Assembly (NCBI GenBank): GCA_030697795.1
Contig: JAUYOV010000006.1
Coordinates: 21,722 to 85,721 of the forward strand
DNA from: a bacterium
GTDB lineage: Bacteria > Patescibacteriota > Minisyncoccia > JACQLN01
Length of the DNA stretch: 64,000 bases
Direction: 5' to 3'
Notes under the pieces: model-generated
What the model was told of the DNA's origin: nothing
Databases searched by the model: none
What the model saw: only the letters and a program-made list of their open reading frames with translations
Part shown: positions 21,138-61,957 of the stretch, piece by piece
Layout: each line of letters opens with the position of its first letter
How positions within the stretch are numbered: position 1 is the stretch's first letter
Made by a program: the position numbers and the translations under genes

Positions 21138-21272
21138 ACAAACTCTAAGCACTAAATACTAAATTCTAAACAAATCTCAAATCTTAATTTTCCAAAAAGT
21201 TTAAAATTTGTGATTTAAATATTGTTTAGGATTTAGATATTAGAATTTAGAGTTTACTGATATAATAAACAC

Positions 21273-21842
21273 ATGACATTAACTACTTGGATTCTAATAG
21301 GTGTGGGCGGTGTAATAGTCCTTTGGATTATCTACGCCTTTAATCGTTTGGTTACTTTGCGTACGCGCATAGAGGAGGCTTTTTCCGATATTGAGGTTCA
21401 GTTAAAACGCAGGTATGATCTTATTCCTAATATAATAGAAGCTGTAAAAGGTTATATGGGGCATGAGCGTTCGGTATTTGAAAATGTAACGCAGGCTCGT
21501 TCGGCGGCTATGTCCGCGTCAAACGCGTCAGGGGCACATGAGAAAGCAGAGAAAGAGAACGCGCTGTCTAATACATTAAAAACTCTGTTTGCAGTTTCCG
21601 AAAACTATCCCGATCTTAAAGCCAATGCTAATTTTTTAGATTTACAACGCGAACTGGCCGACACCGAAAATAAAATCCAAGCCGCTCGCAGATTCTATAA
21701 TGGCAACGTACGCGATCTTAACATTAAAATTGATTCGTTTCCGTCCAATCTTATCGCCGGCTCGTTCGGTTTTAAAAAGAAAGAATTTTTTGACCTAGAC
21801 GATAATTCTCCTGCCCAAGAACCGGTAGCGGTGAAGTTTTAA
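21273..21842 (+). CDS. lemA: LemA family protein
   Basis: N-terminal TM plus RLVTLRTRIEEAFSDIEVQLKRRYDLIPN. Confidence 0.85.
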   Translation: MTLTTWILIGVGGVIVLWIIYAFNRLVTLRTRIEEAFSDIEVQLKRRYDLIPNIIEAVKGYMGHERSVFENVTQARSAAMSASNASGAHEKAEKENALSNTLKTLFAVSENYPDLKANANFLDLQRELADTENKIQAARRFYNGNVRDLNIKIDSFPSNLIAGSFGFKKKEFFDLDDNSPAQEPVAVKF

Positions 21843-21868
21843 GTTCTTGGTTTAAGTACTCTACGAAT

Positions 21869-21898
21869 TTGACAGAGCTTTATATAGTATGCTATCAT
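21869..21898 (+). promoter_or_regulatory. sigma70-like promoter for the diversified ORF (TTGACA-18nt-TATCAT)
   Basis: Seen directly. An AAGGAG SD lies 8 nt upstream of ATG 21982. Confidence 0.45.
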
Positions 21899-21981
21899 TA
21901 TAACAGCATAAATAATGCTGTTCTTTTCCATAAACCCGCGACAGGTCTTAGAGGACAAGTCGCAGAAAAGGAGAACAAGTC

Positions 21982-22575
21982 ATGGCTCATGACAGGTTCA
22001 CATTCAATAGCGCCGGCCAGACTCATGAACTGGAGATGGCGATGGATCGGGCTGGTGGGTACAATGCCGCGATAGTAAAGCGGATGTGCAAAGGTGATCG
22101 ACTCACGCACATTCGGGAATATCTTCTTGGCTTGGCCGAGATTACATATCCCGAGCACATCATCAACTGCAGTGCCGACCCGTTCGTGCCTGAAGGCTGG
22201 AGCGTGGAAGAGCATCAGAAGAGCGGTTCTTTCAAATGGAGTCCCGCCGAGGTGCAGTTCTACCTCTCCGAGCTTCAGAAGCAAGACAAGGTTATCAAGG
22301 GAGATGAGCTTCGCCATGAATTGGCAGGTAAGCCGGTTTACAACGCGAACGTTCTTGATTATCTGCTGGCTCACCCTCATTTGATTCCCGAAGCGTGGAA
22401 AAAAGATGAGCAGGGACGCACCCAATACATCTTTTTCTGGGGAACCATTTACCGCGGCCGGGGCGGCGGCCTCTATGTGCGTTGCCTTTGTTGGGGCGGC
22501 TGCGGGTGGGGCTGGGGCTGCGGCTGGCTGGGCGGCGGCTTCCGCGGCGGCGGCCCCGTGGCTCTGCGCGCATAG
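21982..22575 (+). CDS. putative DGR variable (target) protein; C-terminal Gly/Cys/Trp-rich variable region ending ...GFRGGGPVALRA
   Basis: GC about 58% ORF with own promoter and RBS. Its last about 40 codons equal the VR copy of a TR/VR repeat pair (see findings). Confidence 0.6.
   Translation: MAHDRFTFNSAGQTHELEMAMDRAGGYNAAIVKRMCKGDRLTHIREYLLGLAEITYPEHIINCSADPFVPEGWSVEEHQKSGSFKWSPAEVQFYLSELQKQDKVIKGDELRHELAGKPVYNANVLDYLLAHPHLIPEAWKKDEQGRTQYIFFWGTIYRGRGGGLYVRCLCWGGCGWGWGCGWLGGGFRGGGPVALRA
22451..22572 (+). repeat. variable repeat (VR), coding, 3' end of ORF 21982..22575
   Basis: 122 bp homologous to 22958..23079. Differs only where the other copy has A. GC-rich 3' end, then hairpin 22640-22672. 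Confidence 0.75.
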
Positions 22576-22957
22576 TACTTTGACCCTTGGAATCTTGGGC
22601 TTTTCTTTAGCCCTTGATCCCTTGGGTCTTTTTAATTTAACCCAGTCAGAAGTAAAACTTCTGACTGGGTTTTGTAAAAAATCTAAAATGAATTAAGATT
22701 AACTCGGATACTAGGCGAATCTGCCGGCGGTTACGGCTTCCGGCGGCCGAATTCCGAGGCAAGCTATGCCAGAGTGGGAACGGCCACGGCTTTTCCCAGC
22801 GTGCTAACTTGATCTCTAAAAAACAAAGATACTTGGTGTAGGGTGCTGGTGGATTAGTTTCGCTTTGGCGAACGAGATCCCAAATAAAATACAGCCTTGA
22901 GATCGGTTTGTTTTATAACCTTCTAGGGGCAGTGGTATGGATGGCATCCTATACGCA

Positions 22958-23079
22958 ACCGCGACCGGAACGGCAACCTCTATGTGCGTTACCTTTATTG
23001 GAACGACTACGAGTGGAACTGGAACTACAACTGGCTAGACAACGACTTCAACGACAACAACCCCGTGGCTCTGCGCGCA
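22958..23079 (+). repeat. template repeat (TR)-like copy, non-coding, AAC/GAC/TAC-rich
   Basis: The frame is closed by a stop at 22924 and has no start. Adenines here correspond to G (once C) in the VR. Followed by hairpin ctccccaa...ttaggggag plus a T-run. Confidence 0.75.
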
Positions 23080-23273
23080 ACTATTTTTATTTCTCCCCAA
23101 TTATTTAGGGGAGTTTTATTTTTTTAAATATGATTGTTCAAGATGGTAAAGAACAGTCACTAATTTATGCTATAGCATTTTTTGATGACTATCATAGAGA
23201 TAGAAACAGCGTGACATCCGATGTCATTCAGCGGTGTTTATTATTTTACCCTTTATGTATATACTTTCTTTGT

Positions 23274-24200
23274 ATGAATATATATAACCAAAAGGATGCA
23301 AATGTACGTAAAACGTGGCTTTTGATGGCCGTGTTTTTTGGTGTGGTAATTGGTATCGGCTGGGTGGTTAGTCAATATTACCAAGATCCAAGTATTCTCT
23401 ATATCGCAGTTATTTTTAGCATAGGTATGAATTTTATAAGCTACTGGTTTTCCGACAAAATTGTTTTGGCTTTACATAAAGCCAAAGCAGTGGAATTAAA
23501 ATCAAACCCAGAACTTTTTAGAATTTTAGAAAATTTAACTATTACAGCTGGTTTACCCCTACCCAGATTTTTTGTAATTAACGATCCCGCTCCCAACGCT
23601 TTTGCTACCGGTAGAAATGCCAAACACGCGGTGGTGGCGGTTACATCGGGTCTGTTAGAAAAATTAGACAGGTCCGAAATCGAAGGCGTGTTAGCGCACG
23701 AGCTTTCACATATCGGAAACAGAGATATGTTGGTCTCAACTGTAGCTGTTGTTTTGGTTGGTTTTGTTTCTATTATTTCTGATATGTTTATGAGATCCTT
23801 ATGGTTTAGAGGTGGCGATAATGATAATAGGGGAAGCAATGGAATAATTATTATTGTTGGAATTTTACTTTCTATATTAGCGCCAATTTTTGCTACGCTG
23901 ATTCATTTAGCAATTTCTCGTAAGCGCGAATTTTTAGCTGATGCTTCGGCTGTTTTGTTAACGCGCTATCCTGAAGGCTTGGTTTCGGCTTTAAAGAAAA
24001 TTTCTCAATACGATCATCAACCAATTCGTACAGCAACTAATGCCACCGCTCATTTGTTTTTTGAAAATCCATTTGGAGCCGACGCAGATGGCGATGGCAT
24101 TCCCGATCACAAACAAAAAGTGCCTTGGCTGGCTAAATTATTTTCTACTCACCCCCCAATAGAAGAGCGTATAAAAGCTTTGCAGGGGTTGACCCCGTAG
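23274..24200 (+). CDS. htpX: zinc metalloprotease HtpX (M48)
   Basis: HELSHIGNRD (HEXXH), N-terminal TMs, usual partner of lemA. The ORF's upstream extension (23130..) is likely not translated. Confidence 0.85.
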   Translation: MNIYNQKDANVRKTWLLMAVFFGVVIGIGWVVSQYYQDPSILYIAVIFSIGMNFISYWFSDKIVLALHKAKAVELKSNPELFRILENLTITAGLPLPRFFVINDPAPNAFATGRNAKHAVVAVTSGLLEKLDRSEIEGVLAHELSHIGNRDMLVSTVAVVLVGFVSIISDMFMRSLWFRGGDNDNRGSNGIIIIVGILLSILAPIFATLIHLAISRKREFLADASAVLLTRYPEGLVSALKKISQYDHQPIRTATNATAHLFFENPFGADADGDGIPDHKQKVPWLAKLFSTHPPIEERIKALQGLTP

Positions 24201-24372: not shown

Positions 24373-24630
24373 ATGAAAAAACAAGCTATTGTTAAAACTA
24401 AGTATGGCGATCACCTGATTGTTTTGGAGCGAGATGGCAAAAATTATATGGTAACTGTGCCTGGTTTGCGGGAAATAATAACCCAAGGAGAAAATATTGC
24501 TCATGCTAAAGATATGGCCAAAGAGGCTATCGAATTAACGATAGAATGTTTGGTTGAAGAAAATATAAAGAATAATAAAAAAATTTCTTTTAAGAAACTG
24601 GCTAAGCAATTTGCAACGATTAATGCATGA
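24373..24630 (+). CDS. hicB: HicB-family antitoxin
   Basis: 85 aa with an ...VPGL..I.TQGENIAHAKDMAKEAIELTIE pattern. Overlaps hicA by 4 nt. Confidence 0.7.
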   Translation: MKKQAIVKTKYGDHLIVLERDGKNYMVTVPGLREIITQGENIAHAKDMAKEAIELTIECLVEENIKNNKKISFKKLAKQFATINA

Positions 24631-24857
24631 GTATAATCCCGATTCTTAGCTCGCGTCAGCTACTTTCCGTCCTGCTTAGAGCAGGGCTCAAAATTATTAG
24701 GCAAAATGGAAGCCATATTCGGCTTTATAATCCTGTAACAAAAAGAAGTACAACTTTGTCGATGCACGCAAGAGATTTATCCCGCAAGATAATTACTGGA
24801 ATAATAAAACAGACTGGTTTGTCTGTTAAAGAGTTTCTTGATATTTTGGGCAAGTAA
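24627..24857 (+). CDS. hicA: HicA-family mRNA interferase toxin
   Basis: 76 aa with the RQNGSHIRLYNP...T.L..H...L...I..GIIKQTGLS (YcfA-like) pattern. Confidence 0.7.
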   Translation: MSIIPILSSRQLLSVLLRAGLKIIRQNGSHIRLYNPVTKRSTTLSMHARDLSRKIITGIIKQTGLSVKEFLDILGK

Positions 24858-24932: not shown

Positions 24933-25017
24933 GGAGAGGTCGCATAGTGGTCTAGTGCGCTCGCTTGGAAAGCGAGTGTGGGGAAACCCACCGCGAGTTC
25001 GAATCTCGCCCTCTCCG
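24933..25017 (+). tRNA. tRNA-Ser (anticodon GGA), class II
   Basis: Acceptor ggagagg/cctctcc, anticodon stem ctcgc / loop uuGGAaa, long variable arm, T-arm gcgag-ttcgaat-ctcgc, discriminator g. Confidence 0.8.
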
Positions 25018-25057
25018 CCGTGTTTATAATTAAAAGAAACCCCGGAACTAGTGCACC

Positions 25058-29094: not shown

Positions 29095-32000
29095 ATGAAA
29101 AAATCAATAATCGTTTCATTATTAATAAGTTTGACGTTGGTGCTTTCGGCCCAAGCTCAAACATCTTCTTCTCCAACTTCGATAGAAGATCTGCAAAAAC
29201 AGATCCAGCTCTTGTTGAGTCAGATGAGTTCGCTCCAAAAAGAGATTACAACTTTAAAATCATCCACGTCAAACGTGGCAGTGCCCGTTGCGCCAACAAC
29301 TTCTTCCATAGCGCCACCGCCCAATATTTCTTTACCCTTTGTGCGACCCACTTCACCATTCACTTCGCCGGAGATAGACGAATCGGAAGTGACTGGAACT
29401 GAAACCGAATTTATCCCTCCGCCAATATTAACCCGTTCGCTTTTGCGCGGTTCGCGAGGCGAAGATGTAAGGCAACTGCAGGAATTTTTAGCGCAGGATC
29501 CTACCATTTATCCTGAAGGGTTTACATCGGGCTATTACGGTATCGGCACCGAGGCCGCGGTAAAAAGATGGCAAGCTAAAAACGGCGTGCCGGCCGTGGG
29601 CATAGTCGGGCGCCAAACTATTGCTAAATTTAAAACATTTGTGGCGACTTATTCTCCTCTTCGACCGACAGTGCCCGTTGGACCTCTCCCTTTCCCTAGT
29701 TATTGTCCGGTTTATGCCTATATGCCGACTTGCAAAGAAGATCAATCGCCTAAAGATGCTAATGGTTGCCAAGTCTGCCAGCAAAAATTAATCACTGATC
29801 CAATAAAACCGGTAATCTGCCCGGCCTTGGCTACGGTTGATTCCTGTCCAGCCGGCGAGGAACGGATTGTTACATATAAATCAACGCAATGTGGCGTTTA
29901 TTATGCCTGCAAACCGCGCGAAATCAGCCGAGCCGACAACACTATCGCCACTTTAAAAAAGATTTCATCTATACAAACCGACAACAGATTTACTGTTAAC
30001 TTATACGATCCTGAAGGCGTTCAAAAATTTGCGATCTATAATTCTAAAGGCGCTGAAATTCATTTGGGTTACCCAGCCTGCAAAAAAGAATGGTCTTCGC
30101 CCGTGATCAGCGCCGATAGTGCGGAATTTCCGCTTAAATTGTTGCTAGCTGATTGCGCCAGTTCGCAGTATAGTACTATCTTAAGCACCTCCGTGGTGAC
30201 TAAACCGATTGTGGAAGGGCTGACTTTCCCCTATACCTTTGCCAACGGCAAAGTGGTTAGTTCTTCCAATGAAGCCAGATCTTATTGCTACGCCAATGGT
30301 CCGAGTAGTGGCCAAAGTGTGGCCGCCGAATGCGAAACAAAATTTGGTGTAATTTACACCTCTGTAACTCCTGTTACTTCGGACCGGGCTGTTTATTTGT
30401 CTGACGCTTTTTCGAGTTGTATGTCTAGATCTGGTTTCTTGGCTGATGCCAAGCAAATTAAAACTTGGGCTCAATCTTCCGAGCCTATTCCTTGGTCAGT
30501 TTTAACCAGCGCATCCCAAAATACGGTACAGGCTTGTGAAAGAGAATACTATGGCCAAAGCACAGTGGAAACCGGCTCGGCTATGTGCACCGATGGTAAA
30601 GATAACGACGGCGACGGCTTTATTGATGCGGCCGATTCCAGTTGCGGTAGCACTTATATTGTTACACCGCCGACTGGTCAAAAAGAACAGATTTGGAATT
30701 CTCTAGGCTTAAAATCTTGGATCAAATCCGATGCCGATTCAGCTAGAATCACGCAGTTAAAATCGGTTTGTGCCAGCGTGCCGAATAGTTCTAATATCTG
30801 GACGTCTAACGCCGGTAATTATTCCAGCGCCGACTTTGGCATGCCCGACACCTCTAAATGCCAAAGGGCATCTAGTTGCACAGCCGGCCAATATTTTGAT
30901 GGCGCGGCTTGTGTTACTACTGCTAGCACTAGTACCGGCTTAGTGGAAAATAGTTATGGACTTTGCAGTGACAGTATAGACAATGATCGTGATGGTTTGA
31001 TTGATTCGGCTGACTCAAGTTGCGCTGGATTTACATCTTCCACATCTACTTACGCTTGTTCCGACGGCCGCGATAACGATAGTGATGGTTTGATTGATTA
31101 TCCCAGCGACACTGGTTGCTATGCCAAGGAAGATACTTCGGAAGATGTTCCCACTACAACCACTAGCTGTTCCCAGTACGGTTCCGGCTGGCACACTATG
31201 GGTTCCGACGGCAACTGCTTTGACACCTACATGACAAACTACCGCACTGCTAATGGCACATTATATTCTTGCACCGCCACGCCAACCACAGGCTGTTCCG
31301 GAACAACTACAACTACCACCGGTAGCACTTGCGATAGCAGTTTAACCGCGCTCTTGGGCACTGGCTGCCACTTTATGTACAATGATTCTTCTGGAAAACA
31401 AGTCTTCTGCGATAACTCAATGACCAAATCAGCTAAACAAGGTGACACCGCCACTACTGCCGGCTGTTCATCATACACAACAACTACAACGAGTAACTGG
31501 CCAACCGATCAAACCAGCTGTTCCAGCCAAGGCTATAATTGGTGCACAACCACAGGTAGCAGTAGTGGCTGGTGCCAATCAAGTGTTTGCCCTTCTTCCA
31601 GTTCCACTAGCTCCGCTACCTGTACTTCTGGGCAATATTGGAATGGCACAGCTTGTGTGACGAATACTACAACCACCACTTCTACCGGTTCTTGTTCCCA
31701 ATATGGAGATGGCTGGCACACTATGGGTTCCGACGGCAACTGCTTTGACACTTACATGACAAACTACCGCACTGCTAATGGCACATTATATTCTTGCACC
31801 GCCACGCCGACCTCCGGATGCAGTAGCACAAGTACTTCCAGCACGGCCAGTTCTTGTCCTAATAGTCGGCTAACCGAACTTCTGGGTTCTGGTTGCCACT
31901 TTATGTACAGCACCCCAACCGGCAACATTTACTGTGATGGTCCTATGACTAAATCTGCTAGAGAGGGAGATGCCACAACCACATCCAGTTGCCAAGCGCC

Positions 32001-32301
32001 CACAACAACCACTACTACTTCTTCTACTTCATCAACCACTTCCTGCGCTGGTACACCAGTGTCCTGTACTAATGAAACCCAATGTTGGGGCGCCAGCTAT
32101 TATTGGTATGACGGCAGTTGCCATAGTTCGCCCCAATCCACCAGTACGACAATTTCCACTTCATCCACATCTTGCCCCAGCGGACAATACTGGAGTGGTT
32201 CGGCTTGTGTGAATTCAACACCGTCAGCTTCGGCTTACAATCAAATGAGAGATCAGTTAAAATCTATGGAAATTATTTTACGGGGCTTATTGGGAAGATA
32301 A
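29095..32301 (+). CDS. large secreted Cys-rich surface protein with peptidoglycan-binding (PG_binding_1-like) domain and internal repeats
   Basis: Signal peptide, coiled coil, SRGEDVRQLQEFLAQD...GYYG..TEAAVKRWQ, two about 90-aa repeats (SCSQYG.GWHTMGSDGNCFDTYMTNYRTANGTLYSCTATPT), C-terminal tail QMRDQLKSMEIILRGLLGR. Confidence 0.6.
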   Translation: MKKSIIVSLLISLTLVLSAQAQTSSSPTSIEDLQKQIQLLLSQMSSLQKEITTLKSSTSNVAVPVAPTTSSIAPPPNISLPFVRPTSPFTSPEIDESEVTGTETEFIPPPILTRSLLRGSRGEDVRQLQEFLAQDPTIYPEGFTSGYYGIGTEAAVKRWQAKNGVPAVGIVGRQTIAKFKTFVATYSPLRPTVPVGPLPFPSYCPVYAYMPTCKEDQSPKDANGCQVCQQKLITDPIKPVICPALATVDSCPAGEERIVTYKSTQCGVYYACKPREISRADNTIATLKKISSIQTDNRFTVNLYDPEGVQKFAIYNSKGAEIHLGYPACKKEWSSPVISADSAEFPLKLLLADCASSQYSTILSTSVVTKPIVEGLTFPYTFANGKVVSSSNEARSYCYANGPSSGQSVAAECETKFGVIYTSVTPVTSDRAVYLSDAFSSCMSRSGFLADAKQIKTWAQSSEPIPWSVLTSASQNTVQACEREYYGQSTVETGSAMCTDGKDNDGDGFIDAADSSCGSTYIVTPPTGQKEQIWNSLGLKSWIKSDADSARITQLKSVCASVPNSSNIWTSNAGNYSSADFGMPDTSKCQRASSCTAGQYFDGAACVTTASTSTGLVENSYGLCSDSIDNDRDGLIDSADSSCAGFTSSTSTYACSDGRDNDSDGLIDYPSDTGCYAKEDTSEDVPTTTTSCSQYGSGWHTMGSDGNCFDTYMTNYRTANGTLYSCTATPTTGCSGTTTTTTGSTCDSSLTALLGTGCHFMYNDSSGKQVFCDNSMTKSAKQGDTATTAGCSSYTTTTTSNWPTDQTSCSSQGYNWCTTTGSSSGWCQSSVCPSSSSTSSATCTSGQYWNGTACVTNTTTTTSTGSCSQYGDGWHTMGSDGNCFDTYMTNYRTANGTLYSCTATPTSGCSSTSTSSTASSCPNSRLTELLGSGCHFMYSTPTGNIYCDGPMTKSAREGDATTTSSCQAPTTTTTTSSTSSTTSCAGTPVSCTNETQCWGASYYWYDGSCHSSPQSTSTTISTSSTSCPSGQYWSGSACVNSTPSASAYNQMRDQLKSMEIILRGLLGR

Positions 32302-32318
32302 TCTAGATATTAAAGTAG

Positions 32319-34523
32319 ATGTCGTTCAAAAAAGTTTTTCTTAAAGTGTCTAAAGTATCTATTGTCCTTACCTTAGTGACGCTAGGCGGTTTTGCTTGTG
32401 CCGATATCGCTCTTGCGCAGAAAGTTGATCAAACTGCGCTCATAATCCAACTCCAAAAACAGATCCAACAACTCTTGAATCAAATCCAAACTCTCCAAAA
32501 AGAAGTTACAGAATTAAAAACTGAAACTGGAGTCGAGACAATTCCACTAGTGACTGCACCAGTAGGCGAGTCAGACGAAACAATTGAGTTACCCGAACTG
32601 ACTCGATCATTATCACTAGGCTCTCGAGGCGATGACGTTAAAAAACTTCAAGAATTTTTGGCGCGCGACAAAGAAATCTATCCCGAAGGCTTAGCCACAG
32701 GATTCTACGGGCCTAAAACTGTAGAGGCAATTAAACGCTGGCAAAGAAAAAACAATGTTGAGGTAGTAGGAAACGTAGGGCCAAAAACCATTGCTAAGTT
32801 TAGAGAACTAGGGCAGGGAGTAGTCCAAGGTTTGATTCAACAAGGCACGCCCTTGGGTATGATTCCGCCTGGTTTATTAACTGCACCTGGGATACAAAGA
32901 CAAATGGCCACCTCGACAAGCTCGGGACAAGCCACCTCCACTATTCCGATTATGCCTTATGCAACTATGACTCCGCCGACTTTGCCACAGGCAACTACCA
33001 CACCTGCTGTACCAGCGGTACCGGCTGTGCCGGCTATACCCGGTATTACCAGTGCAGTTCCGGCAACCCCAGCCACTCCGGCTCAGCCCGCTTCTACATC
33101 AACCAGTGCCAGTAACGAACTAAAAGTTATTTATCCTAATGGTGGTGAGACTTGGTATAAAGGCAACTCCTACACAATCACTTGGCAGAATCCGTTGGCC
33201 GCCAGGTTCACCGGCCAAGAAAAATATTACTGGAATATACTCTTAAAACGAGGTAACAATTCTTGGCAAGCCAATGATACCCCTGTGCCAGTAACCCAAT
33301 CTTCGTATGTTTGGTCTAAGTGGACTGGCTGGGCTGAACCAATTCCTAATGCCAGCGACTTTAAGGTGGGTGTTTCTTTGGTTGATACCTGTGCCGCACA
33401 AGTTGGCGGCATCTGCCCTTCGGCTAATATTTCTATAATTCCTGCCGGCGGCATTGATTACAGCGATAACTATTTTACAGCTACGTCAACACCGCCAACA
33501 ACCACGATTACTGATAGGACAGCGCCAACTATTTCTTCGGTCGTGGCAACCAGCATCACTTCCACCTCGGCAATTATTACCTGGATTACCGATGAACCGT
33601 CCGATTCGCAGATAGAATATGGTTTGAATAACCTTTTTGGAAATTTATCGGCGCTTGATACATCACTAACAACCAATCATTCCGTAACTTTAACTGGTCT
33701 AAACTCAAATACTACTTACTACTATCGGGTTAAATCTAAAGATATAGACGGATATTTTGCCTCAATGACTAATTATACTTTTATTACCCTTGCGGCCAGC
33801 GGTAGCTCATCCACTGCAACATGCTCGAATTTAACACTTGGATTCTCAAATAATAAAACCACATACGTGCTCGGTGAGAATGGTTATGTGACATACAGTT
33901 GCCCTTCAACTGTTTATGTGTGCATGAGAATAATCAACCCCGCTGGAGTTATAACAAACATCGGCTGTCACACTGCAACGTCCGGTATCGACGGTTTTGG
34001 TGGTCTTTCCTCGGTGGGAAACTACACCGCTCGCGCATGCTATGGTGCTACAGGTACTACAGATTGTCCAACAATCGCTGCATCTCTATCATTTACGGTC
34101 ATTGCGTCTGCCTCCAACGCCGACACCACACCGCCGGTGATTTCTTCAGTAAGCACAATGGATCCGGCCGCTAACAGTGCCACTATTGTTTGGTTTACCA
34201 ATGAAGCATCGGATTCGCAGGTGGAATACGGTTTGACAACTTCTTATGGAAATTCAACAACAGTCACTACCACTCTGAAAACTGAACACTCTATAGGTTT
34301 AACAGGTTTAACTCCAGCCAGTACCTACCATTACCGAGTTAAATCCAAAGACGGAGCTGGAAATCTTACAACAAGCAACGACTATACTTTTATTACCCTC
34401 ACAACTGCGGCCGCACCAACGCCATCAACCGCATCCACCACGCCTTCGGCCTCGGTCTACAGTCAAATGAGCGATCAGCTAAAATCTATGGAAATTATTT
34501 TGCGAGGTTTGTTGGGTAGATAG
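32319..34523 (+). CDS. large secreted surface protein with PG-binding domain and two fibronectin-III-like modules; paralogous end modules to the upstream gene
   Basis: Same leader/coiled-coil/PG-binding module, two FN3-like units (...SDSQIEYGL...YYYRVKSKD), identical C-terminal tail ..QMSDQLKSMEIILRGLLGR. Confidence 0.6.
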   Translation: MSFKKVFLKVSKVSIVLTLVTLGGFACADIALAQKVDQTALIIQLQKQIQQLLNQIQTLQKEVTELKTETGVETIPLVTAPVGESDETIELPELTRSLSLGSRGDDVKKLQEFLARDKEIYPEGLATGFYGPKTVEAIKRWQRKNNVEVVGNVGPKTIAKFRELGQGVVQGLIQQGTPLGMIPPGLLTAPGIQRQMATSTSSGQATSTIPIMPYATMTPPTLPQATTTPAVPAVPAVPAIPGITSAVPATPATPAQPASTSTSASNELKVIYPNGGETWYKGNSYTITWQNPLAARFTGQEKYYWNILLKRGNNSWQANDTPVPVTQSSYVWSKWTGWAEPIPNASDFKVGVSLVDTCAAQVGGICPSANISIIPAGGIDYSDNYFTATSTPPTTTITDRTAPTISSVVATSITSTSAIITWITDEPSDSQIEYGLNNLFGNLSALDTSLTTNHSVTLTGLNSNTTYYYRVKSKDIDGYFASMTNYTFITLAASGSSSTATCSNLTLGFSNNKTTYVLGENGYVTYSCPSTVYVCMRIINPAGVITNIGCHTATSGIDGFGGLSSVGNYTARACYGATGTTDCPTIAASLSFTVIASASNADTTPPVISSVSTMDPAANSATIVWFTNEASDSQVEYGLTTSYGNSTTVTTTLKTEHSIGLTGLTPASTYHYRVKSKDGAGNLTTSNDYTFITLTTAAAPTPSTASTTPSASVYSQMSDQLKSMEIILRGLLGR

Positions 34524-58654: not shown

Positions 58655-59191
58655 CTAAAACGGTAGATCAGATAACACAGCTTTTTCTTCTTCTGAATTT
58701 GAATCAGTTCCTTTCGCTATGTCCAGCAGAGAATCCATTTTTGAGTTTTTTACGATTGGCAAATTATAAATAATATCCAAAAGATTCTGTAAACTCAAAT
58801 TTCCAAAAGAATCGGCCACTTCATCAATAACTAATAGTTTTTCCGGTCCAAGAGATTTAAGTAGCTTTTCCTTAATTGGAATATGCTTTTTTAAATGATA
58901 TCTTGTATATTTTTTAACGCTATTGGATAGAAGTGGAAATTCCTTCGCTTCAATGTAGTTTAAACTAATCAGCTGGTTAGTATATTTATCTAACTCTACG
59001 GAATATGGACCATGTTTATATCTCTTATATTCTATCGAAGTTATTTTAGTTTTTAATTTTTTCATGGCTAACAAATCTGCTAAAAACAAAAGTTTTTGTA
59101 GATGAGTTTTTCCTAATATTCCGTCAAGTCTAGAAATAAAATAAAAAACGACCCCAAGAGTATTTTTATCTAATGTTTGCCCAGTTTTCAT
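58655..59191 (-). CDS. Panacea (DUF4065)-domain putative antitoxin
   Basis: ..KTHLQKLLFLADLL.. is the signature helix of DUF4065/SocA-like proteins. Sits 5 nt upstream of the toxin gene. Confidence 0.6.
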   Translation of the reverse strand: MKTGQTLDKNTLGVVFYFISRLDGILGKTHLQKLLFLADLLAMKKLKTKITSIEYKRYKHGPYSVELDKYTNQLISLNYIEAKEFPLLSNSVKKYTRYHLKKHIPIKEKLLKSLGPEKLLVIDEVADSFGNLSLQNLLDIIYNLPIVKNSKMDSLLDIAKGTDSNSEEEKAVLSDLPF

Positions 59192-59263
59192 AGATTTGAA
59201 CCTTTATCTTATTTAATTATAGCTCTTATGTAACAAGAAACAAAATTGTCGTTACATGAGTTT

Positions 59264-61957
59264 TTAATTAACCCCCTTTACAATTTTAATCTCCTCTTCC
59301 GTTAAGCCGTAAAGTTTATAGACTTCCACATCAATTTTTTTATCAGTTTTTTCTATTTCGGATTTAATTTTATTGTATTCGTTGGAGTTTTTTTCAACTT
59401 CGTGTAATTCCTTGTTAAGCAAGAGAATATTGTCCACCAAAATAATGATCTGTTTTTGCTGGTCAGTTGTTGCTTTATAAATTGGGAATCGAGCAAGTTC
59501 ATTAACTTTAAATTGTGGAAAAATCTTTCTTTGAAATTTATCAAAGGTTTTGGCAAACCACTGAGAAATAAGTTTTGAATTTAAAATCGCAAGGATATAT
59601 TTAAGATTGAATTCTTTTAATGGAGAAAAAATAACCATGCTATTTATATCGTTCAAGTATTCATCATCAATGAATACTGCATTGACACAATATGGAAGTG
59701 GCGATGGTATTTGCCTCACCAAAATTCTTTGGCCACTAAAAGGTACTGATTTCCTTGGTTCTGCTAGCCAATTTCCATAACTTAAATACTCTCCTGACCA
59801 ATCCAATAAATATCGCTTTACATCAACACCCTGAAGATATGGCCTAAAAGTATCGTTTTCTTTTTTACCAGAGTGAAATCTTCTTTCTTTTTTAATTTTC
59901 TCATCCTGAATGGGATTACCCTTACCAATTTGATAAGCTTTCAAACCTGTAGAAACCTCTGCAATTTCGCCGAGAAGAACTGTATTTTTAAGTTCAAGTG
60001 AGTCTTGTTTATTTTTTGTCTGAGAAATATTTATAACAAATTCATTTTGGTAAAAATCTTCAAGTTTGTGTTTAGATAAAATTGGGTTTTCACCAACTAA
60101 AATATCACCAACTTCAATATCTGTTGAGTCTGCTTTTCTAAAAAGCAAAAGACATGTATCCACACTAGCTTTGTTAAATATACTCTCAACCGTATTTATG
60201 ATTCTTAAGTCTGCAGTATTTTTTAGCAAAAACTCTCTAAGTTTGGAAAATGAATTTATAGTTAGCCAATTATTAGGAATAATATAACCAAAATCACCAT
60301 TTTTCTTAAGCAAGTTAAAACCTAATTCAATAAACAATGAGAAAGTATTTATTTGATATTGTTGTAATTTATAATTAGCGTAATAATATTCTTTTTCATT
60401 CTCATCAAAATTTCCACCTCGCGCAAAAATATAAGGCGGATTTCCTATAATCACATCGAACCCACCTTGTTTAAATACTTCTGGAAATTTTTCTCGCCAA
60501 TTAAAAGGCTTTTTGTCTTTAAAATTACTGCCGAAATATTTTTTAAGTTCTTCGTCTGTGCCCGAAATTAAAGAATTGCCATTTTTAATATTGCTTAAAG
60601 ATGGAAGTTTTTCTTTATCTTTTAAAACGCTTATCAATAAATTTAATCTGGCTATATCTACGGCTTTTTCGTCTAAATCTACGCCATAAATATTTTGAAT
60701 CAATATTTGTAAGCGAGTGCGCGTGTTATCTGGCGCGTTAAAATCTTTGTATTTCTCGGCAATAAGTTCTACTGCCTTAACCAAAAATGAACCCGAACCG
60801 CAAGCAGGGTCTAGTACTTTAATTTTTTGTAAATCGTAAATACTTTGGCACTTTTCTAAAACAGGTCCAAGAGCGTTTTTAACTATGTAATCAACTATAA
60901 AATCAGGCGTATAATAAATGCCCTGTTCTTTGCGTTTTTTGGCATCTTTAGCAACAGAAACTCCTTTTTTAGATTCTTCCAAGCGGTAACTTAAATAGTT
61001 TTCGTATACACCACCCAAAATATCTGCTGGAATAAATTTAAAATCATACTCGTAATAACCGTGTTTGCCATATAAAATATCTATTACTTCTTCGGTAGCT
61101 TCGTCATGTTCTTCCCATTTTTCAAAAGGATGTTCAGAAAATAGGTTAGAGTTATAAAATTCATTCAACTCTCTAAACTTAGAAACCATTCCTTGGTATA
61201 GGTCTTCTCTTTTTTCGTTAGATTTCCAACCACGAACCAATTCCTTTAAAATTGGTGGCTCTAAACCCCTGTCTTCGGCAACTCTTAAAAAAACCAGCCT
61301 GTCTAAAAGTTTTTGAACACCTTCATCAATTAAGTCAGTGGATAGATTATCATTATGTATTTTAAAACTTTTCGTAAGCAAAAGCCTGCATTCTTGAATA
61401 TCTTTATATAGCTTATCCCCCACAGAAACCTTCTGGAGCCGTTTGGAATACTTATCAGCATATTTATCTAGCCCTTTATCTAAAAAAGATTGTTTTGATA
61501 ATAATTGTAATCGATCAAAATCTTCCAAATAATTTTTGTAATCAATTTGAAAAATCAATCGATCGGCCAACGCGCCTTCTATCAGTTGTGAACTGAATAC
61601 TTTTATACTTTCAAAATCTGTAAGAACAGCATAATCAACTCCTTTGTTCCAAGAATATCTCATGGCCTGCCAAGCATATTCTTCTCTGTTTAAATCTGCC
61701 CTAAGAGGTTTGGCTTCAACATAAAGAACTGGGCGACTGTTTAAATGAAAACCATAATCAACTCGCCCGCCAGATATTTGGCTTTCTTCAGCAGAAACTT
61801 CATTTCTATTGGTAATATCCCAACCTAAAGCCTCAAAGAGTGGCGCGATAAAACTATGCTTAGTGTCTTGTTCTGTATAAGCTTGAACTCTGCCAGAACT
61901 AACCGCTTCTTCGTATTTTTTAATTAACGCTTCTATTTTTATTTTTGCTTCATCCAT
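59264..61957 (-). CDS. type IIG/IIL restriction-modification enzyme (MmeI-like: PD-ExK nuclease + gamma-class N6-adenine MTase + TRD)
   Basis: N-terminal D..(V)EAK nuclease motif (VDYGF....LYVEAKPL), MTase motif I VLDPACGSGSFL, motif IV IGNPPYIF. 897 aa. Confidence 0.7.
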   Translation of the reverse strand: MDEAKIKIEALIKKYEEAVSSGRVQAYTEQDTKHSFIAPLFEALGWDITNRNEVSAEESQISGGRVDYGFHLNSRPVLYVEAKPLRADLNREEYAWQAMRYSWNKGVDYAVLTDFESIKVFSSQLIEGALADRLIFQIDYKNYLEDFDRLQLLSKQSFLDKGLDKYADKYSKRLQKVSVGDKLYKDIQECRLLLTKSFKIHNDNLSTDLIDEGVQKLLDRLVFLRVAEDRGLEPPILKELVRGWKSNEKREDLYQGMVSKFRELNEFYNSNLFSEHPFEKWEEHDEATEEVIDILYGKHGYYEYDFKFIPADILGGVYENYLSYRLEESKKGVSVAKDAKKRKEQGIYYTPDFIVDYIVKNALGPVLEKCQSIYDLQKIKVLDPACGSGSFLVKAVELIAEKYKDFNAPDNTRTRLQILIQNIYGVDLDEKAVDIARLNLLISVLKDKEKLPSLSNIKNGNSLISGTDEELKKYFGSNFKDKKPFNWREKFPEVFKQGGFDVIIGNPPYIFARGGNFDENEKEYYYANYKLQQYQINTFSLFIELGFNLLKKNGDFGYIIPNNWLTINSFSKLREFLLKNTADLRIINTVESIFNKASVDTCLLLFRKADSTDIEVGDILVGENPILSKHKLEDFYQNEFVINISQTKNKQDSLELKNTVLLGEIAEVSTGLKAYQIGKGNPIQDEKIKKERRFHSGKKENDTFRPYLQGVDVKRYLLDWSGEYLSYGNWLAEPRKSVPFSGQRILVRQIPSPLPYCVNAVFIDDEYLNDINSMVIFSPLKEFNLKYILAILNSKLISQWFAKTFDKFQRKIFPQFKVNELARFPIYKATTDQQKQIIILVDNILLLNKELHEVEKNSNEYNKIKSEIEKTDKKIDVEVYKLYGLTEEEIKIVKGVN

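Follow-up and report, generated by a model that had tools for sequence, protein, structure and literature searches.

Probable target-plus-template half of a Patescibacteria diversity-generating retroelement without a reverse transcriptase in the surrounding 64 kb

Within the diversity-generating retroelements (DGRs) of the candidate phyla radiation (CPR), architecture B3, in which the order of components is template repeat (TR), (avd) and reverse transcriptase (RT), accounts for 90% of the set of Wu et al. 2018 (PMC5758913), and the matching DGR clade in Roux et al. 2021 is clade 2 (PMC8144416). For the Bordetella phage DGR, reconstitution in Escherichia coli showed that C misincorporation predominates, at 59% (PMC12875486). 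The DNA analyzed here is a stretch of 64,000 nucleotides from contig JAUYOV010000006.1 of a Patescibacteriota assembly (GCA_030697795.1), which is referred to as the window and which provides the numbering for all positions unless a locus is named. On its plus strand, at 21869–23126, lies a cassette that is, on present evidence, probably the target-plus-template half of a Patescibacteria DGR of architecture B3, served in trans by RT and Avd from another part of the genome. The cassette consists of two small transcription units, a target gene ending in a variable repeat (VR) and a non-coding RNA gene comprising a promoter, a leader, the TR and a 3′ hairpin.

The relationship between the two repeats was studied by direct alignment. 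The VR (22451–22572, plus strand) forms the last 122 nt of the target coding sequence (CDS) and encodes ...RGRGGGLYVRCLCWGGCGWGWGCGWLGGGFRGGGPVALRA, and it recurs without gaps and with 75% identity as the TR (22958–23079, plus strand), at the coordinates given in a first-pass annotation of this DNA. That annotation had described about 30 mismatches, all at adenines of the second copy, and a single adenine left unchanged. The alignment contained 31 mismatches, every one at a TR adenine, with A>G in 30 cases and A>C in the remaining one (23050), while the number of unchanged adenines had to be corrected to three of 34 (22958, 22982 and 23079), the first and last of these being the end bases of the repeat. 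All 88 non-A positions of the TR are the same in the VR, and the probability that 31 random mismatch positions would all hit the 34 adenines among 122 positions is 7e-26. The absence of any non-A mismatch indicates a last homing event that is recent on the time scale of neutral drift.

In the reading frame of the target gene (open reading frame, ORF; 21982–22575), the TR contains 10 AAC, 5 GAC and 3 TAC codons, in keeping with the richness in these codons noted before. Its adenines fall at codon positions 1, 2 and 3 in the proportion 10/22/2, placing 32 of the 34 at the first or second position, and no TGG codon was affected in the comparison of TR with VR. The TR also aligned codon for codon with the TRs of complete DGRs. 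A search of the window with a pattern carrying N at every A of the repeat returned just the two known copies and gave no matches in 100 shuffled sequences. No third copy or second cassette was found in the window. The base composition is less extreme than first reported (about 58% GC for the unit in a 36% genome), with values of 49.8% for the 1.29-kb unit, 57% for the target CDS, 79.5% for the VR and 38.8% for the window. The possibility that the second copy is simply a decayed paralogue was also checked and did not hold, since the A-rich copy has its counterparts in the TRs of complete DGRs and the mismatches are confined to adenines. The pair is almost certainly a genuine DGR target and template. 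The initial proposal of a VR/TR pair with its RT outside the window, either served in trans or orphaned, gains support from homologues located in complete target-TR-(Avd)-RT cassettes and from the conserved cis and RNA elements that the window has kept.

The target gene (21982–22575, plus strand) encodes a protein of 197 aa identical to NCBI protein Q8Q95_02805, which derives from a metagenome-assembled genome (MAG) and is encoded on a 97-kb contig. Database searching returned 1,262 relatives, each of about 195 aa, and the named sources were MAGs of Patescibacteria type. No matches were obtained for the target protein in Pfam, NCBIfam, PHROGs or PADLOC, and a Foldseek search against the PDB was empty. 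In the family alignment, the C-terminal 40 residues display an invariant Trp/Leu/Arg scaffold, and the positions in between are occupied by G, D, S, Y, C, R, H or N, the amino acids within reach of AAC codons. Scanning the species representatives of GTDB gave 321 loci, 80 of which were fetched. Target, TR, Avd and RT were found together in approximately 28 of these 80. On longer contigs (L001 and L004) the homologue is likewise followed by a TR, an opposite-strand bAvd gene and an RVT_1 gene. A phage origin was considered and rejected, as the sequence pattern of the template-RNA leader is absent from IMG/VR and the target family is nearly absent from viral contigs. Only four viral contigs carried a relative of the C-terminal domain of the target, none of them with an RT or Avd of this clade nearby.

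The region running from the stop codon to past the TR was then aligned across 42 loci and revealed a fixed layout, consisting of a CTTNG zone of about 60 nt, a hairpin terminator, a promoter-like box, a leader of about 250 nt, the TR, and a tail with a hairpin. In the window, the target gene is preceded by a promoter at 21869–21898 on the plus strand (TTGACA, 18 nt, TG-n-TATCAT), which has an extended −10 element, agrees with the consensus at 11 of 12 positions and is conserved in position in locus L067. An array of CTTNG pentamers (22576–22635, plus strand) lies directly 3′ of the stop codon; it is conserved, and in L067 near-identical. Across the 42 loci there are 3.5 CTTNG motifs per 60 nt after the VR, compared with 0.43 in shuffled sequences and 0.45 after the TR, so that the array is 8-fold above shuffles behind the VR and absent behind the TR. 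Judged by this distribution, the array is a candidate mark of the VR, and not the TR, as the recipient site.

The terminator of the target gene follows on the plus strand at 22640–22681 and comprises a perfect 15-bp hairpin (AACCCAGTCAGAAGT / ACTTCTGACTGGGTT, loop AAA) and then a T-rich run. A perfect hairpin at 22640–22672 had been put forward earlier as a defining DGR trait. The 15-bp stem is indeed perfect, but its sequence is wholly different between relatives, being species-specific between conserved flanks, and together with the T-rich run this points to an ordinary terminator; the conserved element in this region is the CTTNG array.

Upstream of the TR, a promoter-like region at 22661–22699 (plus strand) contains a conserved −10 sequence (GnTAnAAT) that aligns with ATTAAGAT at 22692–22699, and it is the putative promoter of the template-RNA gene. 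The structured leader of the template RNA occupies 22706–22957 (plus strand; about 250 nt) and was modeled with RNAalifold on 36 loci (alignment A3) as eight helices. The model contains 53 pairs, with compensatory double changes in 40 of them. Counted over the alignment, 96.9% of cells were paired, compared with 39–49% when the partners were slid by 1–3 columns, and none of 500 shuffles reached the observed count. The window copy of the leader forms 50 of the 53 predicted pairs. The leader had no match in Rfam at gathering thresholds, and E values up to 5 gave just chance matches to microRNA and small RNA models. A limited search of the DGR literature found no description of either the leader RNA or the CTTNG array. 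The 5′ stem-loop of the leader (CTGCCGGCGGTTACGGCTTCCGGCGGCCGAA) is common to DGRs with unrelated targets. It was tried as a marker of an RT-less subtype and rejected, because the 31-mer is also present in complete DGRs with other targets (L092, L094, L097 and L103), which makes it a general element of Patescibacteria DGRs.

The template RNA ends in a 3′ tail (ACTnTnTTnATTTCTC) and a hairpin (23080–23126, plus strand), in which CTCCCC (23093–23098) faces GGGGAG (23108–23113) ahead of a T-run, and the hairpin acts as a terminator. The sequence of the tail is conserved across loci, and in complete elements it is directly followed by the stop codon of the Avd gene, which is convergent. By analogy, this segment may correspond to the spacer RNA of the Bordetella phage, which serves to prime cDNA synthesis. 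The predicted template RNA would be about 420 nt long (22706–23126). The window contains a complete target gene with a strong promoter together with a complete template-RNA gene.

The enzymatic half of the system is missing from the window. The first-pass annotation had reported that no RT or avd exists in these 64 kb, and this was upheld by Pfam analysis of the ORFs not recognizable by eye, which gave neither RT nor Avd, by a YxDD scan of all six frames, which gave no RT, and by tblastn with the RT and two Avd proteins from complete homologous loci, which again gave neither. The arrangement also occurs elsewhere. Of the loci that have a TR and are covered for more than 5 kb downstream, L002 (GCA_964365185.1; = L009), L042, L063 and L067 (MAG H52-bin035_1) likewise lack Avd and RT, and the RT-less loci L002 and L067 show no non-A mismatches between TR and VR. 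The window and L067 are about 93–97% identical from the stop codon to the TR terminator; their target CDSs share 48% protein identity and their flanks are unrelated.

A metagenome scan with the leader 5′ stem-loop yielded 15 loci. The whole-module relatives of the window were L099 (identical to L067), L096 and L100, each carrying target, leader and TR without Avd or RT, with 3 kb of downstream sequence covered in the case of L100. The downstream junction to alaS is common to L067 and L096/L100, and since the downstream gene is the same, the RT-less layout predates the split between them. L096 and L100 originate from two different wells and are 97% identical overall; identity reaches 100% over more than 1.2 kb of the target-gene body and over a further 677 nt that begin with the post-VR element and include the TR. 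Comparison of the VR between siblings had been suggested at the outset, and here the VRs of L096 and L100 were found to differ at 20 sites, 18 of which are TR-adenine positions. As these VRs differ almost only at TR-adenine sites, retrohoming must have occurred in the RT-less configuration, and this implies an RT acting in trans. RT-less cassettes such as L096/L100 are probably served in this way. An apparent second VR at 1642–1772 of L096 was tried and rejected, as comparison with L100 gave about 39 mixed substitutions at the 3′ end of an mnmA-like gene, pointing instead to a recombination patch.

L093 (OBEQ010660369.1) has a leader, a different TR and a terminator, with no Avd or RT in the next 1.2 kb, and a lemA homologue is present elsewhere in the locus. 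In L045, Avd is present and no RT was detectable in 5.6 kb downstream. The RT of L097 matches as two fragments (query residues 18–120 and 293–349), which suggests an internal deletion. In L104/L105, at approximately 864–1300, the leader carries a 33-nt insertion and the TR ends after about 14 nt, so that the locus looks like a decaying cassette. The Avd homologues of the clade (protein matches P0121–P0240) are mostly on contigs shorter than 3 kb. Assemblies seem to break at DGR core loci, so that the RT locus may often be absent from genome bins.

For the source genome of the window, an RT acting in trans is the arrangement we favor, with reasonable though far from complete confidence. By analogy with the Bordetella phage BPP-1, the leader-TR RNA would be bound by an Avd-RT complex encoded elsewhere in the genome, and the TR would then be copied into cDNA with misincorporation opposite adenines. 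The cDNA would replace the VR, with the CTTNG array after the VR marking the recipient copy; the roles given here to the leader and the array are predictions from their conservation and position. The VR as it now stands would have been written in a recent event of this kind, with almost all template adenines read as G (C in the cDNA), and recent use of the cassette is argued by the intact leader and by the absence of mismatches at the 88 non-A positions.

Note, however, that several observations weigh against such service in trans. No RT for the source genome was found in the 64-kb window, and a database search with Avd gave no match traceable to the source MAG or its sequencing run. The closest protein homologue, P0002 (74% identical; L104/L105), keeps the leader and has lost the TR. 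The window VR is represented by a single haplotype: the Logan k-mer contig L006 (k = 31, run SRR13727529) equals window positions 21656–22741 over 1,086 nt with no mismatches and no branch, including through the VR. Finally, the extent of A>G change in the window VR has a joint probability of about 7e-11 under the pooled spectrum of the family and is unpredicted by the standard mechanism.

One alternative interpretation is that the cassette is a recently orphaned relic, in which the genome has lost its DGR RT, the cassette is frozen, and the all-G VR is the last product before the loss. The lack of RT and Avd in the 64 kb and the single, unbranched haplotype in the Logan contig are consistent with this, as are the stages of decay present among the relatives, where the TR is deleted in L104/L105, the target stands alone in L007, L008, L108 and L109, and non-A mismatches are accumulating in L042 and L063. 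However, with none of the 88 non-A positions changed and 50 of the 53 leader pairs still formed, in a 39%-GC genome, the orphaning would have to be very recent. In addition, the TR-adenine differences between L096 and L100 arose when the RT-less layout was already in place. We regard a relic as possible but rather unlikely, and continue to prefer an active cassette served in trans.

The extent of A>G change in the window VR was compared with the family at large. In 41 family TR/VR pairs, the TR adenines became G in 34% of cases, C in 9% and T in 13%, and were kept as A in 45%; in the pooled data, 61% of substitutions are A>G and 55% of adenines are changed. The share of changed adenines ranges from 32% to 75% across the family and is statistically homogeneous (p = 0.09). 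In the window VR, 31 of 34 adenines are changed and 30 of these 31 changes are to G (97%). Gly at variable positions reaches 70% in the window, and the next highest value among 88 family VRs is 48%, the median being 26%. The share of A>G does differ among elements (chi-square p = 8e-5), with 18 G, 0 C and 1 T in L019, and because this difference is significant, the enzyme or the cell state modulates the spectrum. The nearest cassettes have G/C/T spectra of 11/4/5 (L096), 6/4/11 (L100) and 11/3/3 (L067).

An A>G bias in itself is ordinary for DGRs, given the pooled family value of 61% and the dominance of C misincorporation in the Bordetella phage DGR. The unusual A>G diversification chemistry raised in the first-pass annotation does not stand as a property of the lineage, as normal A>N spectra are seen in the relatives, the closest RT-less cassettes among them; the saturation of the window VR itself remains an outlier. 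That the all-G VR might be a consensus or assembly artefact was rejected, since the independent Logan contig is identical over 1,086 nt. The saturated all-G VR is a real haplotype and an extreme statistical outlier. Our best guess, held with low confidence, is that it arose from an event-specific or enzyme-specific excess of dCTP insertion, for example through a shortage of dTTP.

It could be that a different chemistry operates here, either A-to-I deamination of the template RNA, with faithful reverse transcription afterwards, or a specialised RT that deterministically writes C opposite A, in which case the gene would be recoded and not diversified. Such a chemistry would account for the 30 A>G changes out of 31, at 31 of 34 adenines (P of about 7e-11 against the 41 family pairs), for the highest Gly content among the 88 family VRs (70% against a median of 26%), and for the uneven A>G share between elements (p = 8e-5), of which L019, with its 18 G, 0 C and 1 T, is an example. 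The closest cassettes (L096, L100 and L067) nevertheless have mixed, ordinary spectra, no deaminase is linked to the cassette, and one A>C change is present. We also know of no hyper-editing of bacterial RNA by A-to-I deamination, and consider this chemistry improbable. Finally, although the direction of change is in principle unreadable from two copies alone, a locus that is not a DGR at all, with the second copy a decayed duplicate altered by G>A hypermutation or the all-G VR a product of assembly consensus, can be dismissed with near certainty, as the A-rich copy aligns position by position with the TRs of complete DGRs, its adenines lie almost only at codon positions 1 and 2 (AAC, GAC, TAC), TGG codons are never affected, the k = 31 Logan assembly reproduces the VR exactly, and a per-column consensus of the family spectrum would favor A and not G. 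The codon phase and the homology of the A-rich copy to canonical TRs specifically rule out the reversed, G>A direction.

The cassette is flanked by two genes that lie outside the element. On the left is lemA (21273–21842, plus strand; Pfam LemA, 8.7e-59) and on the right, directly after the TR terminator of the window, is the region of an htpX-like gene for an M48 peptidase (23277–24200, plus strand; Pfam Peptidase_M48, 3.4e-34). The true start of the latter is likely MNIYNQKD at 23277, the ORF having been listed from 23130. The view that lemA and htpX are normally neighbors was confirmed in two related genomes, where the gap between them is 100 nt (L011) and 470 nt (L084). The sister cassettes sit upstream of alaS, while the window cassette is between lemA and htpX, and these contexts indicate that the 1.27-kb module has come to occupy different positions from genome to genome. 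Neither mobility genes nor flanking repeats were seen at the cassette. A more speculative proposal, which we hold to be doubtful, is that these are free-standing 'satellite' DGR cassettes, which persist, move between sites and are rewritten by a remote RT-Avd through the leader and the CTTNG array, and that here the serving enzyme or the state of the cell leads to near-deterministic, saturating insertion of C opposite A, in a mode that would be new for DGRs.

Other features of the window were recorded. The AT-rich spacer between groEL and lemA contains a 52-nt imperfect inverted repeat (21140–21255; 73% complementary). Just downstream of htpX is a pair encoding a HicB-like antitoxin and a HicA toxin (24373–24857), followed by tRNA-Ser (24933–25019), and in L002 and L003, too, the RT-less cassette is followed a few kb later by a HicAB-type pair. 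Large secreted proteins of 1,068 and 734 aa are encoded side by side at 29095–34523. Their C-terminal ends are near-identical (...QLKSMEIILRGLLGR) and their N-terminal regions similar, and by sequence they look like tandem paralogues. At 58655–61957, a fused restriction-modification gene of Eco57I/MmeI type (897 aa) lies next to an antitoxin-like gene with a SocA/Panacea domain and a small ORF of no known kind.

Published surveys (PMC5758913, PMC8144416) searched outward from the RT gene, and RT-less TR/VR cassettes would be missed for that reason. Such cassettes recur, being found in the window, in L002, in L067, in L096 and L100, and in L042 and L063, and at least one pair of them (L096/L100) is still being rewritten at adenine sites. 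If RT-Avd acts in trans on separate template RNAs, a 1.3-kb combination of RNA gene and target can serve as the unit in which DGRs evolve and are transferred. Were service in trans to be true, the leader, which covaries over about 250 nt and is outside Rfam, and the CTTNG array would be candidate recognition elements in a DGR class without an experimental model. The saturated VR also indicates that a natural retrohoming product can fall far outside the usual figure of about 55% of adenines changed. This is relevant to engineered mutagenesis with DGRs and to the way in which the mutational spectrum is set by nucleotide pools or by variants of the enzyme.

In comparison with known systems, the cassette shares most with the B3 DGRs of Patescibacteria (CPR), with no difference in target family, TR design, leader RNA or 3′ tail from complete elements such as L001, L004 and L013, and with a target without a recognizable domain, as in the CPR DGR surveys (PMC5758913, PMC8144416). 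It differs from them in lacking Avd and RT both at the locus and in the surrounding 64 kb, and in its position between lemA and htpX. Features common to the cassette and the DGR of Bordetella phage BPP-1 (mtd, avd, TR, brt) are the adenine-specific flow from TR to VR, the location of the VR at the 3′ end of the target, the adenine-free, GC-rich end of the repeat, a template RNA that needs flanking RNA segments (bioRxiv 10.1101/2023.10.23.563531) and the predominance of C misincorporation seen in vivo (PMC12875486). The two differ in gene order and Avd orientation, in the large conserved RNA domain that lies upstream of the TR in the window family, in the CTTNG array after the VR, where the phage has a short hairpin, in the lack of a linked RT, and in the near-complete A>G change of the window as against approximately 30–50% misincorporation in the phage.

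A parallel for the separation of target and enzyme is provided by remote-target DGRs, for example those of Treponema and the many-target systems of multicellular bacteria (PMC10907252), in which the target also lies away from the RT and is diversified in trans. The window target, in contrast, has its own template-RNA gene, with leader, TR and 3′ hairpin, and no shared TR on the RT side; a limited search of the DGR literature found no description of a remote target with its own template-RNA gene or of RT-less TRs. The window cassette belongs in its parts to a known Patescibacteria DGR lineage and is, in its layout, an architectural variant, in which the target comes with a template-RNA gene of its own and with neither Avd nor RT.

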